Shown: positions 17,717 to 25,774, numbered from the stretch's first letter. The stretch is 29,679 nt of DNA from Desulfurivibrionaceae bacterium (GCA_041556375.1 JBFFIS010000001.1:1-29679), one strand, 5' to 3'. Translations and numbers: made by a program. Notes: a model not told the origin generated them from the letters alone.

Positions 17717-18385
17717 TCACTTAGAATCTCCATCTTCGGGAGATTTTGTTTTGCTGGCCTTGGCTGGCTCCGGCAGGAGGGTGTAGTCTGCCGGCAGGCT
17801 AAAATGGTCATTCTGGCGGGGGCTGAGCTTGGCCTCTAGCCATTCCACTGTGATCTGATACTCCGGGTCCACCCATTTCAAGGGGTAGCCCGGCAAATCA
17901 ACGGCCTCCCAGAGCTGGCCGTCATAGGGGCGCTCAACCCCAGGAACTCTGACCTCCGCTTCATATTTGACGGCCTTGCGGCCGGCTATGACCTCCTCGG
18001 CCACCCGTTTTTTGGTGATCGTGACATTGGGTTGAAAGAAATGGGGGACGCTGCGTCCCATGACCGCCACTGACATCTCCTTGTACTGTTTCGCACTGGG
18101 CGCCATGAGCCAGAGAACCTTGGTGTCATAATCGGCGATGACGGTGGAAAAGGTGCGGCCGCCAAGGACCTGGATGCGCAGATGGGGGCCGTTGGCGACG
18201 ATTTTAGCCATGGAGGTCCGGTGGTCGGCGACTGTGGTTTTCATTTTGGCTTCAAAGCTCAGATTGGCGGCATGGATCATTCCCGGGGCGCCGATGATGA
18301 GGACGGCCGGTAAGAGCCAGGCGAGACTGGTGGCCAATTTTCTCTTTGTTTGGCTGCCCTCTTGTCCTAAATAACGTGTTTTCAT
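17717..18385 (-). CDS. Secreted hypothetical protein (DUF4412-like)
   Basis: GAGG RBS; signal-like segment ending IHA; I..DYD.K.LW.M.PS.K.Y.EM, E.I.G.K..KY.., F.LP.DY pattern. Confidence 0.75.
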   Translation of the reverse strand: MKTRYLGQEGSQTKRKLATSLAWLLPAVLIIGAPGMIHAANLSFEAKMKTTVADHRTSMAKIVANGPHLRIQVLGGRTFSTVIADYDTKVLWLMAPSAKQYKEMSVAVMGRSVPHFFQPNVTITKKRVAEEVIAGRKAVKYEAEVRVPGVERPYDGQLWEAVDLPGYPLKWVDPEYQITVEWLEAKLSPRQNDHFSLPADYTLLPEPAKASKTKSPEDGDSK

Positions 18386-18466: not shown

Positions 18467-20113
18467 TTATCGTATAGCAACCGGCACGGTCACCGCACTG
18501 CCCAGTTCAGAGATGATCGTTACATTGTCAACATAGGTGACGCCGGGCAGGCCGATTTTGAAGATATCATTGGCCGCATCATAGACCATGGCCCTGGTAA
18601 CACCATCGTAGATGATGGCCAGATTGGCGATTTCGCCGGCATCGCTGGTGGCCTCGACCTTGAGGACAGCCTGGGCCGAGATGAACTCGGCCTGGGTGAC
18701 GGTGATCAGGTCAATATCGCCGCCGGTGGGCGGGGTGTCGTCACCGCTATAGGCCGGGTCTTCCCACTCGATGATGAGCTGGGCGTCCATGATATCCGTG
18801 CCGCTGTACTCGCCCTTGATGTAGAGCATCAGGTCAAGATCCGCCGACAGGGGGCAGCCCTCATAGGAGATACCGTCCTTAACGGTGTCGGTGGGGTCAA
18901 AGGGGTTAAGGTCGTTATTGTCGTTCCAGCCCGCAGACGAGGTAAGCGGCGAAGGGAAGTTGGGGTCAACCACCTTGGTGATCTCATCACGATAGCCCCA
19001 GGCCAAAAGGTCGATGGTGGTGGTGGCGAGCTGGCCTGCCACATAGGCCGGAATCTCGACGCCGGGAATGTCCTGGCCATACTTACTTGACTTCAGGCGA
19101 TAACGGGGGTTGTCGCCGCCAAAGGGATCGCGGTCCATACTGGTGTACCAGGCGTTGGTGTAGCCGTACCACAGGTCAACGGCGTCAGCACTGACATCGG
19201 CCAGGGCCGGATCTTTGAGAACCGTGCCCGCCGGGATGAAATCGCCGTCACCCTCAAAGGCGTCCTTGTCGGAAAGCCAGCGACCCGAGGCGTCGACGGT
19301 GTAGCCGGGCTTGATGCCGGAGGCCCACTCATTTTCATAATCCTCAGGACGGATCTGGTCATTGGGGCTGGTTGTGATGCGGTGGGTGATGGTGAGCTTG
19401 GCCGATTTAACCACATAGTCGGCACCGCTAACCTTCCAGGCCTCGGGCACCGGCATCTGCTTGTAAAGACGAAGCTGGGTGGGACGCTTCTTGTAATTAC
19501 CCCACTGGTAGAGGATCTTGCCGTCATCCTTCCAGCGCGTCGTGTAATCGCCGAGGTTCATTAACTCATCCGTGACGGGATCACGTTGGATTTCCACCAG
19601 GGGTGGCATCCAGGGGGCATTCATAATGTGCTCCATGACACAGTACTTTTCTGTGCCCGCCTTAACGGCAAGACCGCCTAAGCCCGCCATGATTTCTCCC
19701 TTCATCATGCCGGTGAGGTAGCCCGGGGTCTCATCGTTTTTGACCGTAACACCGATGACATTGCCGCCGGTATCGGTGATCTCGGCAATATAGCCCTCGC
19801 TATAGATGCCGTCCATGGGCCGGTTTTCGGCGGCCACAGTGGGGTCGAAATCCATGACGTCAAAGCCGTAGGCCGAATCAATGGCGTAATGCGTCAGGGT
19901 GTCTTTAAAGAAATCGAGGTCGACCAAGGGGTTGGCCGTGTCCAGGCAGGCGGTGCCACGCAGAGTCGAATCGCACTGGACATCGTCAATGGTAAACGGC
20001 ATCTTGGGACTGACATAGACCCGGGTACCGGCTTCGACAGCGCTGCCGGCCAGCAGGCAGGCGGCGGTAATACAAGCTGCACTGTAAATCTTCCTTCTTG
20101 CTCTCTCCTTCAT
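18467..20113 (-). CDS. Secreted/cell-surface acidic protein of unknown function (548 aa) with a C-terminal beta-rich module
   Basis: GGAGGA RBS before ATG 20113; signal peptide MKERARRKIYSAACITAACLLAGSAVEA; Asp/Gly/Tyr-rich body. The extension to 20395 in the track runs through promoter DNA and is not supported. Confidence 0.85.
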   Translation of the reverse strand: MKERARRKIYSAACITAACLLAGSAVEAGTRVYVSPKMPFTIDDVQCDSTLRGTACLDTANPLVDLDFFKDTLTHYAIDSAYGFDVMDFDPTVAAENRPMDGIYSEGYIAEITDTGGNVIGVTVKNDETPGYLTGMMKGEIMAGLGGLAVKAGTEKYCVMEHIMNAPWMPPLVEIQRDPVTDELMNLGDYTTRWKDDGKILYQWGNYKKRPTQLRLYKQMPVPEAWKVSGADYVVKSAKLTITHRITTSPNDQIRPEDYENEWASGIKPGYTVDASGRWLSDKDAFEGDGDFIPAGTVLKDPALADVSADAVDLWYGYTNAWYTSMDRDPFGGDNPRYRLKSSKYGQDIPGVEIPAYVAGQLATTTIDLLAWGYRDEITKVVDPNFPSPLTSSAGWNDNNDLNPFDPTDTVKDGISYEGCPLSADLDLMLYIKGEYSGTDIMDAQLIIEWEDPAYSGDDTPPTGGDIDLITVTQAEFISAQAVLKVEATSDAGEIANLAIIYDGVTRAMVYDAANDIFKIGLPGVTYVDNVTIISELGSAVTVPVAIR

Positions 20114-20210
20114 TTGAACTTCCTCCACTTCAAGCAGGGGAGAAAGATCTGCTCTCTCGCCTGCTGGGATGTTCTCCTCCTTAGAAAGAACCCTTCCCTG
20201 AAATGGGAAA

Positions 20211-20227
20211 AGCAATTCACATGCCTT
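20211..20227 (-). promoter_or_regulatory. Sigma54 (-24/-12) promoter for the secreted protein gene
   Basis: The minus strand reads AAGGCATGTGAATTGCT: GG-N10-GC with the TTGC element, matching TGGCACG-N4-TTGC, about 100 nt upstream of the ATG. Confidence 0.72.
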
Positions 20228-20294
20228 AAATCCGACACAACTGTGGCAAAAAGAGGCTGGCGGGTGTAAGCTGGGTAGTTTTACCGATACGGAT

Positions 20295-20315
20295 GGTGCG
20301 GTAAATTGTCGCACC
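20295..20315. promoter_or_regulatory. Inverted repeat, candidate enhancer (bEBP UAS)
   Basis: GGTGCG-N9-CGCACC, about 70-90 bp upstream of the -24 element. Confidence 0.4.
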
Positions 20316-20672
20316 GGGGTTGTCTGTCTGGTAGGGTGACATGAAAAAATCTTTGTTAACAACCGGTTGCGATGGGTGGTTAAGGGGTTGGTCAACGGGA
20401 ATGTTGATCCGTGAAAATAAGTATTCTTGGACGGCGAAGGCCTGTTTGTCAGCGGTCAGGTGGTTTGTTTCTGGTCAGTAATCAGCCATGGAGTGGCTAG
20501 AAAATGATTTTGCAGCGCTTGGTGTAAAAGCGAAAAGACCATGAAGTTGGTCCGCTTGATCAGGTACAGATAAAGAAAGGAGTTAGGAACTCTGCTTCCG
20601 CTGGCCAGGCATCGTTTCGTTTTTTGTCGGAGTTGTGATGAGGCCCTATGTTGTATGCAGAGGTGTGACAGT

Positions 20673-22979
20673 ATGAACTATATAAAAACCAAAGATCCGA
20701 AGTACTCACGGATCGAGCTTATCGCCTACGGCCAGGTAATCGGCCTTACCCTGCTGCTTGTTTTTACCTTTCTGGCCGGGCAGCGAAATAGCCAGGAAAA
20801 CATCAAAAAACTGGCTGAAACGAATGCCCGTACCCACTCCCAGAAAGATTCCAGCTATCGACAACTGTTTATCGCCAGTGGCGGCGCCTATATAACACTC
20901 GGTAAGGAAATTCTTCCAGACGAGACCTTGTCCCACCGGCACGACCGCGATATTGTGACCCGGGATGGCAAAGTGGCCACGCTGGTCAGTCCGAAAAATC
21001 TTTTACATCTTGCCAATGATCTCCTGCCAGCAGATGGCCATGGGCACCGGATTGTTTCTGTCATAAAGACCTTGCATCCCTTGAGTCAGGAAGACACGCC
21101 GGACGAATGGGAAGCTCAGGCCTTGCGCGGGCTGCAACAGGGTAGGGCTGAAGTCAGCGAGGTGATGGACAGGGATGGTCGCAAGTTTCTACGCTATATG
21201 TACCCTGTTTTGGCTACCCGGGGATGCCTAAAAAACAGGCCGGATAATGATCTTAAGGTGGGTGACCTGCTTGGGGGGCTCAGTGTCACCGTGCCCATGG
21301 ATCTTTTTGATTATCTTCGTCAAGAACATACCCGCCACTCTTTCTATCTTCACTTCATTCTCTGGCTTCTGGGTGTTGCCGGTATCTTTTGGAGTTTCCG
21401 TAAGGTTCAAAAACGGGATGCTGAAATTCTTGCGGCCCAGAAGGCCCAGAGAGATGCCTATGAAGAGCTGGAAAAGACCTTTGACGCCATCGACGGCATC
21501 ATCACCATCCAAGACCAGGATATGCGGATCACCAGGGTAAACAGGGCTACCTGTGAGACTTTTAACGCCACCATGGCAGATTTGATCGGCAAGTACTGTT
21601 ATGAGGTGTTTCGTGGTACCACTAAGCCCTGCGAGGGCTGTCCGGAAATCAAGTCCTTGCAAGATGGTATCTTGCACCACAGTGAGATAGAGCATACAAA
21701 CCTGCAGAAAATCTTTGCTGTCTCCGCTGCTCCTATTGTTAATGACAGTGGTGAGACCACCAAACTTGTCCATTATGCTAAGGACATTACTGAAAGCCGC
21801 CGTCAGGAAAAGCAGCTGCGCCAGGCCCAGAAAATGGAAGCTGTCGGGACTCTAGCCGGTGGTATTGCTCATGATTTTAATAACATCCTTACGGCCATTA
21901 TCGGTTTTTCCGAGCTGGTGTTGATGCGTTCGAGCCTTAATGACGAGATCGGCCAAGATGTTAACCAGATCCATCAAGCCGGTCTCCGGGCCAAGGATCT
22001 TGTGCAACAGATCCTTACCTTCAGTCGTAAGGGCGAGCAGGACTTTCAGCCCCTTCAGGTTCAGCCAGTTGTGAAGGAGGCCTTGAAGCTTCTGCGTGCC
22101 AGTATTCCAGCAACCATTGCCTTTAAGGGTGATATTGCGGAAGGGAGTGCTTTGGTAATTGCCGACCCATCACAGGTGCATCAGGTTGTTATGAACCTTT
22201 GCACCAATGCCTATCATGCCATGCGTGATCTTGGCGGCATACTGACGGTCACTCTCAAATCGGTGGAATTAGGCGAAGAGGATGTGCGAGAAAAGAGGGG
22301 GGTCAAGCCGGGTTCTTACCAGCTTTTGACCGTTGCTGATACGGGAAAGGGGATCAAAAAAGAGCTGCACGATAGAATCTTTGAGCCCTATTTCACAACC
22401 AAGGAAAAAGGTGATGGAACCGGTTTGGGCCTGTCGTTGGTGCATGGCATTGTGCGTTCCATGGGTGGGGCTATTGCCGTGGAGAGTGAGGAGGGCCAAG
22501 GAACCACTTTTTGTGTTTACCTGCCGGTCGTTTCTGACTCGGAGGTGGCTAAGAAGAATGAAGCAGCATGGCAGGGCCGGATGCCCATCGGCAGCGAGCG
22601 CATTCTTCTCGTTGACGATGAGGAAAGTATTATTACCATGGAAAGGCGCACCTTGGAGAGCCTGGGGTATAAGGTTACAGCCTTCTATGATCCTCTTGAG
22701 GCCAGAGAAGTTTTTATGGCTGAGCCAGAAAACTTCGACCTGGTGATTAGCGATATGAATATGCCTCACTTGTCAGGGCTTGATTTGGTCGAGTTTATGA
22801 AAGGCCTACGCCCGGATCTGCCAATTATTATAAGTACCGGTTTCAGTGATCAGATTGACACCAAGACGGCGCAAAAATATGGGGTGACAACGGTTATGAT
22901 GAAACCTGTGTTGTTGCATGAACTGGCCCAAGAAGTTCGCCTTGCCCTTGACGTTTTTAAGGCAAGCAAGGAGTCATAG
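20673..22979 (+). CDS. Hybrid sensor histidine kinase (TM-DUF3365/Tll0287-like-TM-PAS-HisKA-HATPase-REC)
   Basis: KD..YR....GG.Y, PD.WE..AL, RYMYP....CLK...KVGD..GGLSV.VP (DUF3365); LAGGIAHDFNN; HQVVMNLCTNA; IFEPYFTTK; GTGLGL; ILLVDDE..SDMNMP..KP. GAGG RBS favours 20673 over 20655. Confidence 0.93.
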   Translation: MNYIKTKDPKYSRIELIAYGQVIGLTLLLVFTFLAGQRNSQENIKKLAETNARTHSQKDSSYRQLFIASGGAYITLGKEILPDETLSHRHDRDIVTRDGKVATLVSPKNLLHLANDLLPADGHGHRIVSVIKTLHPLSQEDTPDEWEAQALRGLQQGRAEVSEVMDRDGRKFLRYMYPVLATRGCLKNRPDNDLKVGDLLGGLSVTVPMDLFDYLRQEHTRHSFYLHFILWLLGVAGIFWSFRKVQKRDAEILAAQKAQRDAYEELEKTFDAIDGIITIQDQDMRITRVNRATCETFNATMADLIGKYCYEVFRGTTKPCEGCPEIKSLQDGILHHSEIEHTNLQKIFAVSAAPIVNDSGETTKLVHYAKDITESRRQEKQLRQAQKMEAVGTLAGGIAHDFNNILTAIIGFSELVLMRSSLNDEIGQDVNQIHQAGLRAKDLVQQILTFSRKGEQDFQPLQVQPVVKEALKLLRASIPATIAFKGDIAEGSALVIADPSQVHQVVMNLCTNAYHAMRDLGGILTVTLKSVELGEEDVREKRGVKPGSYQLLTVADTGKGIKKELHDRIFEPYFTTKEKGDGTGLGLSLVHGIVRSMGGAIAVESEEGQGTTFCVYLPVVSDSEVAKKNEAAWQGRMPIGSERILLVDDEESIITMERRTLESLGYKVTAFYDPLEAREVFMAEPENFDLVISDMNMPHLSGLDLVEFMKGLRPDLPIIISTGFSDQIDTKTAQKYGVTTVMMKPVLLHELAQEVRLALDVFKASKES

Positions 22980-23067: not shown

Positions 23068-23757
23068 ATGAATCGATATGTGGTGGCAAACTGGAAATCA
23101 AACAACACCCTAGCCGAGGGTCGGCAGTGGCTCAGCCATTTCCTTGGTCATTACCGTCCCCATCCAGACCTTACGGTCATTATTGCCCCGGCTTTTCCCT
23201 TTCTTGTGCCCCTCAAAGAACTGCTTGTTGACAGCAAAAGCGGCGTTCTGCTCGCTGCGCAGGATGTCTCACCCTTTCCTCTGGGTTCCTATACCGGGGC
23301 GGTGGCGGCTGAAATGCTCAATGGTATGGCAGACTATGTTCTGGTCGGCCATTCTGAGAGGCGTCGCTGGTTTCATGAAAGTAATCAAGAGGTGGCCAAC
23401 AAGGTCCACGAGGCAGTGACCATGGGCATCACCCCCATTCTCTGTGTTGATCAACCCTATGCCCGCGCCCAGTTTGCCGCCCTTTCCAACCATGAGCTGG
23501 CCAGCAGTATCATCGGCTATGGCCCGGTGGAGGCAGTTGGTGTTGATAGTGCCCCTTCACCAGAGCGGGTCAGCGCCGCTGTCAGCCAGTTGCAGGCCAT
23601 GGCCCCTGACAGCCCCATTCTGTACGGCGGCTCAGTCAGTGCTGAAAATGCCGGCGACTATATGCAGATTCGCGGCCTCGCTGGTCTGATGACGGCCACG
23701 GCCAGCCTCGACCCCCAGGAGTTTGCCGCCATCTGCCAGCTGGTTGCTGAAAGCTGA
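23068..23757 (+). CDS. Triosephosphate isomerase-like protein lacking the catalytic Glu (probable pseudo-enzyme)
   Basis: ANWK, AQDVS, G.YTG, VLVGHSERR, PILCV and ILYGGSV are present; AYEPVWAIG reads GYGPVEAVG and GGASL reads ATASL; it is shortened after CV. Confidence 0.9.
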   Translation: MNRYVVANWKSNNTLAEGRQWLSHFLGHYRPHPDLTVIIAPAFPFLVPLKELLVDSKSGVLLAAQDVSPFPLGSYTGAVAAEMLNGMADYVLVGHSERRRWFHESNQEVANKVHEAVTMGITPILCVDQPYARAQFAALSNHELASSIIGYGPVEAVGVDSAPSPERVSAAVSQLQAMAPDSPILYGGSVSAENAGDYMQIRGLAGLMTATASLDPQEFAAICQLVAES

Positions 23758-23896
23758 CAAGACGAGGTGCTGACATTCACCAAGGCACCATTATGTCTTG
23801 AATTCCCAATCGTAAAATAATTTCGAACTGTAGATGTTTTTCGGGGATGTTTGCCCACCAAAGAAGAAAATGCATTGTGGAAAGGAGGAAGATGCC

Positions 23897-25774
23897 GTGG
23901 CAAAGGAGAGAAAAACCATTGAGGACAAATCTATCTGGGATGACGCCCGCCAGATGCTGGCCAAAGCCGAAAAGGATGGTGTGGAAACGGCCTGGGATCG
24001 CCTTGATCAGCAAAGCCCCCATTGCCAGTTCGGTGAAAGCGGTGTCTGTTGCCGGCTCTGCACCATGGGTCCGTGTCGGGTTGGCAAGAAGGCGGCGCGC
24101 GGCGTCTGCGGCGCTGATGGTGATGTCATCGTGGCTCGAAATTTCGGCCGTTTTGTCGCTGGTGGATCGGCAGGCCATTCCGACCACGGCCGTGACTGTA
24201 TTGAGGCCTTGTATGATGTGGCCCACGGCAAGACCAAGGATTATAGCATCAAGGACGAGGCCAAAATGCGCCGTATTGCTGTAGAGCTTGGTATTACTGA
24301 ACAGGGCCGGGACACCCTGGAGGTGGCCAAGGATCTGGCTGATGAGTTTTACAGCAACTACGGCAGCAGGCGTGATGAGCTCTCCTTTCTGTGCCGAGTA
24401 CCACAGAAACGCAGGGATATCTGGAAAAACTTAGGGATGACGCCACGCGGTGTCGACCGGGAGATTGCCGAGATGATGCATCGCACCCATATGGGTTGCG
24501 ATAATGATGCCGTTAACACCATGGTCCATAGTGCCCGCACCTGTCTGGCCGACGGCTGGGCCGGCTCGATGATCGCCACCGAGATTTCCGATATCCTCTT
24601 TGGCACGCCAACACCACGCACCTCCATGGCCAATCTCGGCGTCATCAGGGAGGACCAGGTCAATATTTTGGTTCATGGCCACAACCCCATTGTCTCTGAA
24701 AAGATTGTTGAGGCGGTGAATGATCCAGAGCTTATTGCCCTGGCCAAGGAGAAGGGGGCCAGCGGCATTAATCTCGCCGGCCTGTGCTGCACCGGTAACG
24801 AACTCATGATGCGCCAAGGCGTCCCCATGGCCGGCAACCATCTGATGACCGAACTTGCCATTGTCACCGGGGCCGTGGAGCTTATTGTTGTTGATTATCA
24901 ATGTATCATGCCCAGCCTGGTCACTGTCGGTAACTGCTATCACACCAAGATGGTGACCACCGCCGACAAGGCCCGGTTCAGCGGTGCCGAACATGTCAAG
25001 TTTGGGATGGACAATGGTCGGGCCCAGGCCCGAAAGGTGGTGGAGATGGCCATTGACCGCTTTGCCCTGCGCGATAAGGGCCGGGTGCAGATCCCGGAAG
25101 GACCGGTGGAGCTGATGACCGGCTTTTCCAACGAGGCCCTGCTTGCCGCCCTGGGCGGCAGCCTGACCCCCCTCATTGAGGCCATCAAGGCCGGCAAGAT
25201 TCGCGGTGCAGTGGCCATTGTCGGTTGTAATAATCCCAAATATCAGCAGGATTACTGCAACGTCAATCTGGCCAAGGAGTTGATTAAAAGGGATATCCTG
25301 GTCTTGGTCACCGGGTGCGTGACCACGGCCACCGGCAAGGCCGGTTTGTTGGTGCCCGAGGCCATCAGCCAGGCTGGCCCCGGCCTCCAGGAGATCTGCG
25401 GTGCCCTCGGCATCCCGCCGGTAGTTCATATGGGCAGCTGTGTTGATAACGCCCGGATTATCCAGCTTGCCGCCTTGCTTGCCAACGAGCTGGGGGTCGA
25501 CATCTCGGATCTGCCCCTGGCCGGCTCTTCGCCTGAATGGTACTCGGAAAAGGCGGCTGCCATCGGCACCTATTGCGTGGCCTCGGGTATCTACACCCAT
25601 CTGGGCCATCCGCCCAATATCACCGGTTCGGAGCTGGTAACCAACCTGGCCCTGCAGGGACTTGACGATCTGGTGGGAGCCTGTTTTGTCATTGAGCCCG
25701 ATCCCTTCAAGGCAGCGGCGCTCATTGACGAGCGAATCAAGCAGAAGCGCACAGGCTTGGGGCTCAGTGCCTGA
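23897..25774 (+). CDS. cooS: Anaerobic Ni,Fe carbon monoxide dehydrogenase catalytic subunit
   Basis: C-x7-CC-x2-C-x4-C...GVCG (D/B clusters); GHSDHG; C-cluster ligands HGHNP, LCCTG, DYQCI, GCNN, GCV, GSCVDN; SEKA. AGGAGG 8 nt before GTG 23897. Confidence 0.97.
   Translation: MAKERKTIEDKSIWDDARQMLAKAEKDGVETAWDRLDQQSPHCQFGESGVCCRLCTMGPCRVGKKAARGVCGADGDVIVARNFGRFVAGGSAGHSDHGRDCIEALYDVAHGKTKDYSIKDEAKMRRIAVELGITEQGRDTLEVAKDLADEFYSNYGSRRDELSFLCRVPQKRRDIWKNLGMTPRGVDREIAEMMHRTHMGCDNDAVNTMVHSARTCLADGWAGSMIATEISDILFGTPTPRTSMANLGVIREDQVNILVHGHNPIVSEKIVEAVNDPELIALAKEKGASGINLAGLCCTGNELMMRQGVPMAGNHLMTELAIVTGAVELIVVDYQCIMPSLVTVGNCYHTKMVTTADKARFSGAEHVKFGMDNGRAQARKVVEMAIDRFALRDKGRVQIPEGPVELMTGFSNEALLAALGGSLTPLIEAIKAGKIRGAVAIVGCNNPKYQQDYCNVNLAKELIKRDILVLVTGCVTTATGKAGLLVPEAISQAGPGLQEICGALGIPPVVHMGSCVDNARIIQLAALLANELGVDISDLPLAGSSPEWYSEKAAAIGTYCVASGIYTHLGHPPNITGSELVTNLALQGLDDLVGACFVIEPDPFKAAALIDERIKQKRTGLGLSA

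Follow-up and report, generated by a model that had tools for sequence, protein, structure and literature searches.

Textbooks present triose-phosphate isomerase (TIM) as the “perfect enzyme”, and few catalytic devices have been studied as thoroughly as its glutamate base and the lid that grips the phosphate. In the 29,679-nucleotide stretch of DNA analyzed here (the window; Desulfurivibrionaceae bacterium, GCA_041556375.1, JBFFIS010000001.1:1–29679), a gene for a TIM-like protein lacks the codon for that glutamate. This raises the question of whether such a gene is genuine and maintained and, if so, what a TIM barrel might do once its general base is gone. A preliminary description of the locus had proposed a pseudo-enzyme or a neofunctionalized TIM barrel, and this classification proved correct: the catalytic Glu has been lost, the loss has a single origin, the gene is under purifying selection, and it coexists with a canonical tpiA located elsewhere in the genome.

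The open reading frame at 23068–23757 (+), taken from the ORF listing of the window, is complete and, as had been claimed, clean: it begins with ATG and encodes 229 amino acids plus a stop codon with no interruption. Residues 4–225 matched the Pfam TIM family (PF00121) at 165–166 bits with an E value of 1.3e-48, far above the cut-off of 20.1, and this alignment, which the preliminary description had recommended, places the protein in the family at the level of the fold. The ORF scored below the curated cut-off in nine of nine NCBIfam TIM models; the TIGR00419 equivalog gave 91.4 bits against a cut-off of 130.6, and the best dedicated TIM equivalog model, NF011163, gave 120.9 against 298. An AF2 model built from a 50-sequence alignment contained eight β/α units at a mean pLDDT of 92.8, the block of lowest confidence being residues 151–160 (loop 6; pLDDT 67), and the top Foldseek matches of this model were all TIMs (TM 0.8–0.9).

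Much of the TIM active site can be read directly in the DNA. Asn8-Trp9-Lys10 (23089–23097, +) supplies the ligand-polarizing residues Asn10 and Lys12 of TIM; Asn8 and Lys10 are invariant in a family alignment of 50 sequences (A1), and Lys is present in 97% of a wider set. The GHSERR motif (23347–23364, +) keeps both His95 (CAT, 23350–23352) and Glu97 (GAG, 23356–23358), with Gly94, His95, Glu97, Arg98 and Arg99 invariant in A1. The dimer-interface loop 3, QDVSPFPLGSYTGA (23260–23301, +), includes GSYTGA, in which Thr76 corresponds to Thr75 of TIM. Gln65, Ser68, Pro71, Gly73, Tyr75 and Gly77 of this loop are invariant in A1, and Thr76 is conserved in at least 90% of the sequences. Loop 7 reads YGGS (23623–23634, +), Tyr186, Gly187 and Gly188 being 98–100% conserved and Ser189 relaxed across the clade, and loop 8, LMTATAS (23686–23706, +), is the counterpart of LVGGAS in long TIMs. 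Thus, of the residues that identify the enzyme, Asn10, Lys12 and His95 (together with Glu97) are present in the ORF, and the Glu of Y-E-P is not.

That residue is missing from the segment comprising the end of β6 and loop 6, GYGPVEAVGVDSA (23515–23553, +), which reads Gly-Tyr-Gly152-Pro-Val-Glu155-Ala-Val-Gly-Val-Asp. Gly152 (GGC, 23521–23523) stands in the place of the catalytic Glu and is two substitutions away from GAG or GAA; Glu155 is encoded by GAG at 23530–23532. The lid tip has changed from AIGTG to AVGVD, such that neither the Ile clamp nor the Gly-Thr-Gly tip is present, YGGS itself being in place. At the end of β5, Asp128 of CVD (GAT, 23449–23451, +) occupies the site of Gly in the CIGE of long TIMs, and alignment to the canonical TpiA of the same genome leaves a 15-residue gap after CVD. 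The DNA bears out the preliminary description on each of these motifs: NWK, His95 with HSERR, and the loop 7 YGGS are intact; AYEPVWAIG is replaced by GYGPVEAVG, with the two-substitution codon where it had been placed; and loop 6 E-A-V-G-V-D, loop 8 ATAS, loop 3 GSYTGA and the gap after CVD are all present.

The absence of a single catalytic residue could in principle reflect a decaying pseudogene or an error of assembly or sequencing, and the missing residue is the only observation that speaks for such an explanation. However, all of the best 120 homologs of the ORF, at 53–78% identity, carry G-Y-G-P, nearly all of them within G-Y-G-P-V-E-A, so that the retention of Y-E-P in close orthologs, which the preliminary description had named as refuting evidence, was not seen. 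The named sources of these homologs are Desulfurivibrionaceae, Desulfobulbaceae, Thermodesulfobacteriota metagenome-assembled genomes (MAGs) and Thiovibrio sp. JS02 (ortholog P0032). Contigs from three independent metagenome studies (marine and sediment) covered the gene with 6, 21 and 41 differences, and none of the differences listed (all but 12) fell within 23440–23552; the sequencing runs that contained the stretch were DNA metagenomes only. The agreement of homologs and independent contigs upholds the earlier view that Gly152 is not a single-base miscall.

The distribution of the gene was assessed in sampled genomes. Within the order of the window, ∼57 of 121 genomes carry the paralog (117–345 bits to the query), and in nearly all of these carriers it is accompanied by a canonical TIM (∼60–85 bits to the query). 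No paralog was found outside the order among 401 genomes sampled from the phylum; the best matches there, in genomes G255 and G260, were rejected as paralogs, being canonical TIMs with AYEPVWAIGTG. Among the genomes sampled, the clade was thus found only in the order of the window (source names Desulfobulbaceae, Desulfurivibrionaceae and Thiovibrio). Some genomes of the order hold two Glu-less copies besides a canonical tpiA, namely G106 (loci L055 and L056, 81% identical), G042, G051 and G115.

A whole-genome search, which had been proposed as a check, identified two TIM-family genes in the genome of the window: the ORF described above and a 254-residue gene on contig C425. The latter lies between pgk and secG, retains AYEPVWAIGTG, CIGE and YGGS, and is a canonical tpiA. 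Its product (EC 5.3.1.1) and the paralog have in common the TIM barrel, the Asn, Lys, His and Glu97 residues, the loop 3 Thr, YGGS and a match to PF00121. By contrast, the canonical protein is only ∼33% identical to the paralog, is 25 residues longer, has GGAA/GGAS in loop 8, scores 302 bits against Pfam where the paralog scores 165, and is encoded within a pgk-tpiA-secG cluster.

Selection on the paralog was estimated as pairwise NG86 dN/dS for pairs at dS 0.11–1.3. Values of 0.09–0.31 were obtained, including 0.19–0.21 for the window against two congeners; the loss of Glu is therefore fixed under purifying selection, as the preliminary description had suggested might be found, and the ratio is not near 1. 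In a control with the same genome pairs, tpiA gave 0.091, 0.143, 0.145 and 0.209, compared with 0.088, 0.110, 0.116 and 0.170 for the paralog. Given this match, recent constraint on the paralog equals that on a core glycolytic gene. Between families, the paralog is 33–36% identical and tpiA 59–62%, a deeper divergence that would fit subclades that are old or changes that came in bursts between them. The reading frame is intact in all genomes examined but one, an incomplete MAG in which one TAG interrupts it. The intact frames, the low dN/dS, the occurrence of the Glu-less state in more than 120 homolog clusters, its agreement with independent contigs and the confident AF2 model together make decay or error very improbable indeed.

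To establish where the Glu-less protein arose, 1.84 billion representatives were searched exhaustively with HMMER for relatives. The nearest were short TIMs of 215–240 amino acids and not long bacterial TIMs, and 130 full-length rows among them keep the Glu. Named members of this group belong to the Patescibacteria, and the contigs of the two closest Glu-retaining proteins look Patescibacteria-like in gene content. The best match of solved structure was PDB 7r9b (223 amino acids, 136 bits), with relatives 7r7m (Katanobacteria WWE3) and 7rgc (Absconditabacteria SR1). Both 7r9b, which was deposited as triosephosphate isomerase, and the Patescibacteria protein P0153 have Y-D-P, with Asp in the position of the catalytic Glu. 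Atlas neighbors of the paralog were clusters from Thermodesulfobacteriota and Collieribacteriota, named TIM family protein.

A maximum-likelihood tree was built from 193 rows and rooted with long TIMs. The 59 rows that lack Glu are all united in it as a single clade (SH-aLRT 98) inside the short-TIM radiation, and the nesting of this clade within a subgroup of short TIMs is supported by branch values of 95, 87 and 98. The rows that neighbor the clade carry C-L/V-D and A-Y-E-P-L-E/S-A-I-G-T-G. The tree requires one loss of Glu for the clade and one unrelated change from Glu to Asp, in a Patescibacteria protein. These relationships are consistent with the acquisition of a short TIM and the subsequent loss of its base.

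The 229-residue ORF has the length, the helix 5 deletion, the C-V/L-D motif and the tree placement of the short Patescibacteria-type TIMs. It has in common with these proteins the shortening around helix 5, C-V/L-D where β5 ends, Y-T-G-A in loop 3, Thr/Ser in loop 8 and, in many of them, a Glu three residues past the catalytic position. The short TIMs differ in that they keep the Glu (130 of 130 other rows, compared with none in the clade), Ser96, the A-I-G-T/S-G tip and the loop 7 Ser, all of which have been lost or relaxed in the clade. In addition, the short TIMs appear to be the sole TIM of their own genomes, whereas the Glu-less protein accompanies a long canonical TpiA as a second copy. 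A second TIM-family gene with a non-glycolytic role is also found in genomes that encode L-erythrulose-1-phosphate isomerase (EryH/TpiB), but those enzymes retain the catalytic Glu and are still isomerases. The present clade is set apart from them by the absence of Glu and by gene context, and no erythritol or sugar-catabolic genes were found near the TIM-like gene at the window or at the relatives' loci examined.

Comparison with the short TIMs also separates the changes that accompany the loss of Glu from those that do not. The CVD motif with its deletion, Y-T-G-A and the non-Gly residue of loop 8 had been listed as oddities alongside the loss, but all are found in Glu-retaining TIMs and therefore predate the loss and are not linked to it. 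For example, Ala78, which replaces Glu in loop 3, is also found in 37% of the Glu-retaining short TIMs. In loop 8, position 210 (Gly232 of TIM) is Gly in 75% and Ala in 20% of the clade, and position 211 (Gly233) is Thr/Ser in the clade, as it is in roughly half the short TIMs that keep Glu.

When the clade, thinned to less than 60% identity (28 rows), was compared with the 130 Glu-retaining short TIMs, only seven positions were clearly relaxed: Ser96, Glu152 (TIM 165), Ile157 (170), Gly158 (171), Thr159 (172), Gly160 (173) and Ser189 (211). The rest of the protein is conserved equally or more. Ser96 is present in 98% of the Glu-retaining proteins but in 59% of the clade, where it is otherwise Arg, Ala, Pro or Leu, the change to Arg occurring in one subclade; Ser189 falls from 99% to 64%. 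Position 152 is Glu in all 130 short TIMs, whereas among the 59 clade members it is Gly in the subclade of the window and Thr, Cys, Ser, Asn or Val in others. The tip of loop 6 is conserved inside subclades and differs among them, and no replacement residue common to the clade appeared at or near position 152 after the loss. From established TIM enzymology, we take the seven sites to be the general base, the Ser on which it rests when the lid is open, the hydrophobic clamp, the tip of the lid that grips the phosphate and the Ser in loop 7 by which the lid is latched; together they are the base-and-lid module. Judged from these alignments, the truly loss-specific changes (Ser96, Glu, the Ile/Gly/Thr/Gly tip and the loop 7 Ser) form a wider set than the one listed in the preliminary description.

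The lining of the site is otherwise invariant or nearly so at Asn8, Lys10, His95, Glu97, Thr76, Cys126, Tyr151, Pro153 and the loop 7 Tyr-Gly-Gly. At ∼33% identity, retention of Asn, Lys, His and Glu97 is stricter than in many pseudoenzymes, and fits either chemistry or binding. Conservation added specifically in the clade is found not in the pocket but on a single polar face of helix 4 (Tyr101, His103, Gln107, Asp108, Asn111 and Glu115). This pattern would suit a new interaction surface, a signal that may in part arise because the clade spans a narrower range of taxa (mean column entropy of 1.78 compared with 2.28).

Two Glu-less metagenome representatives, P0121 and P0129, have Glu in place of Lys10 (A-N-W-E); P0121 is also altered at Ser96 and Glu97, and P0129 at Arg98. 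Lys10 was lost in none of the 133 Glu-retaining rows of the tree. The changes in P0121 and P0129 suggest that in some lineages the site has eroded further, and the losses of Lys10, taken with the helix 4 pattern, lean weakly to the non-catalytic side; the strict retention of Asn, Lys, His and Glu97 leans the other way.

Removal of the catalytic Glu from TIM costs several orders of magnitude in kcat. Nevertheless, the paralog could still be a TIM, slow or specialized, in which Asp128 or Glu155 substitutes for the base. Such a proposal would draw on the presence of every substrate contact other than the base, on the acidic residues at positions 128 and 155, and on the Asp of 7r9b and P0153, which indicates that the catalytic position varies among proteins deposited as TIM. 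The preliminary description had offered Glu155, as one of two alternatives, as a relocated base for a different reaction. However, close orthologs have Met, Gln, Ala or Ser here, deeper subclades have Thr among other residues, and Glu is found at this position in 28% of the short TIMs that have the catalytic Glu; Glu155 is therefore rejected as a relocated base. Asp128 lies at the end of a neighboring strand and could in principle serve as a base. Position 128 is Asp in 90% and Glu in 8% of the clade, but given that Asp is already present in 52% of the Glu-retaining short TIMs, it is ancestral, and a compensatory gain of a migrated base at this site is likewise rejected. Both acidic residues thus coexist with Glu in short TIMs of the working type. 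Since the phosphate-gripping, base-clamping tip of the lid is gone as well and a canonical tpiA is already in the genome, retention of TIM activity appears quite improbable.

Gene neighborhood was considered as a further guide to function. In the window, the TIM-like gene begins 88 nt past a PAS/HisKA/HATPase/REC hybrid kinase and ends 76 nt ahead of a Ni-CODH. The sensor kinase (20655–22979, +) additionally contains a Tll0287-like periplasmic domain. The sigma70-like promoter reported earlier was not recovered by a consensus scan of the + strand of the 88-nt upstream gap; the ribosome-binding site reported with it is present, as AGG 8 nt 5′ of the ATG, but is weak. No convincing terminator was found around the TIM-like gene, and since none lies in the 88-nt gap, co-transcription with the kinase is possible. 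Elsewhere in the window, two reading frames at 18467–20392 (−; 641 amino acids) and 17717–18382 (−; 221 amino acids) had no Pfam match at E 1e-4.

The downstream gene (23834–25774, +) encodes a CooS-type Ni-CODH of the Prismane family (605 bits). Adjacency of the TIM-like gene to cooS occurs in only three genomes, all of the genus of the window (the window itself, L047 and L048), and is absent from 21 other loci of the subclade. A general functional pairing of the TIM-like protein with CODH was rejected, the adjacency being confined to one genus. Across the 24 loci of this subclade no conserved neighbor was found; histidine kinases recur, but at inconsistent positions.

A different arrangement is seen in the deeper, basal subclades, where 17 of 20 loci have a common co-directional cluster that ends in the TIM-like gene. 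Its order is HD-domain protein, holB, PSP1, metG, yggT, DivIVA (in some), yggU (DUF167) and the TIM-like gene (loci L017–L034, for example L024:12–6672 and L033:5995–7004), with dnaG next in some. In seven loci that were read, the distance between yggU and the TIM-like gene is 2–22 nt, or the two genes overlap by 4 nt. The yggT-yggU cluster of the deeper subclades indicates an ancestral housekeeping setting; in E. coli, the gene that comes after yggU is that of a house-cleaning enzyme, rdgB. In the genome of the window, yggU is on another contig and the TIM-like gene is not with it. A complex prediction for the TIM-like protein with the adjacent YggU/DUF167 protein of one basal-subclade genome scored 0.00, and the predictor gave no call for or against a complex.

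Taken together, these data are best explained by a TIM-derived ligand-binding protein from which isomerase activity is predicted to have gone, a reading to which we assign a probability of roughly 45%. The protein would be a functional, selected descendant of a short-type TIM that does not work as a TIM. At the origin of the clade, the module for proton transfer and lid closure (Glu, Ser96, the Ile clamp, the Gly-Thr-Gly tip and the loop 7 Ser) was dismantled, and the other half of the active site (Asn8, Lys10, His95, Glu97, Thr76, the loop 7 Tyr-Gly-Gly and loop 8) was kept almost invariant. The TIM barrel is presumably still formed, and probably the dimer also. A small phosphorylated hydroxy-carbonyl compound, or a similar anionic ligand, may be bound in the retained pocket but not isomerized; binding of this kind would imply a role in sensing, in sequestration or in regulation of a partner rather than as an isomerase. 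The ranking of this reading above the others follows from the clean, single removal of the base, the lack of a replacement residue, the retention of the ligand-binding half and the strength of selection.

The main rival is a neofunctionalized enzyme with another reaction or substrate, such as an isomerization, an elimination or the repair of a metabolite. In this proposal Asn, Lys, His and Glu97 would act together with proton transfer that is provided by Asp128 or by the substrate, or that is not needed. It would account for the clade-wide invariance, or near-invariance, of Asn8, Lys10, His95 and Glu97, for selection as strong as that on tpiA and for the Asp or Glu that 98% of members have at position 128. 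The pocket would also be widened where the Glu side chain had been by the Gly or Thr now at position 152; the housekeeping cluster and the proximity of yggU in the basal subclades point in the same direction, and the identity of 33–36% between families, compared with 59–62% for tpiA, is compatible with subclade-specific shifts in specificity. On the other hand, the pocket fixed no new residue when Glu was lost and Asp128 was inherited, position 152 and the tip of loop 6 vary among subclades, two members have lost Lys10, and no metabolic gene is found among the conserved neighbors. A new enzymatic activity is thus a serious possibility, but one that we do not favor.

A bolder reading, in which the TIM site minus its general base has given rise to either a new enzyme or a sensor dedicated to some metabolite, seems to us less likely than not. 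One possibility within it is a housekeeping activity in repair or homeostasis that would use Lys, His and Asn together with proton transfer by Asp128 or by the substrate. The ancestral association of the gene would then be with the yggT-yggU cluster for cell envelope and division.

Public annotation of these proteins is divided, with “triose-phosphate isomerase” used in some sources and “family protein” in others, and literature searches on TIM pseudoenzymes, Desulfobulb-named TIM paralogs, short-TIM structures and YggU/DUF167 returned nothing on the Glu-less clade. Here, one of the best-known catalytic devices has been removed once, with the remainder of the protein kept over an order-level span under selection of tpiA strength. 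For enzymologists the clade constitutes a natural dissection of the TIM active site, and for the pseudoenzyme field it offers a clean bacterial case with cultured hosts, since Thiovibrio sp. JS02 carries an ortholog. Should a new enzyme or sensor have arisen on this site, the clade would be a natural experiment showing which half of the textbook mechanism of TIM lends itself to other chemistry. The practical consequence is that the Glu-less genes should not be counted as TIM when the metabolism of sulfate reducers, sulfur disproportionators and related sediment bacteria is reconstructed.
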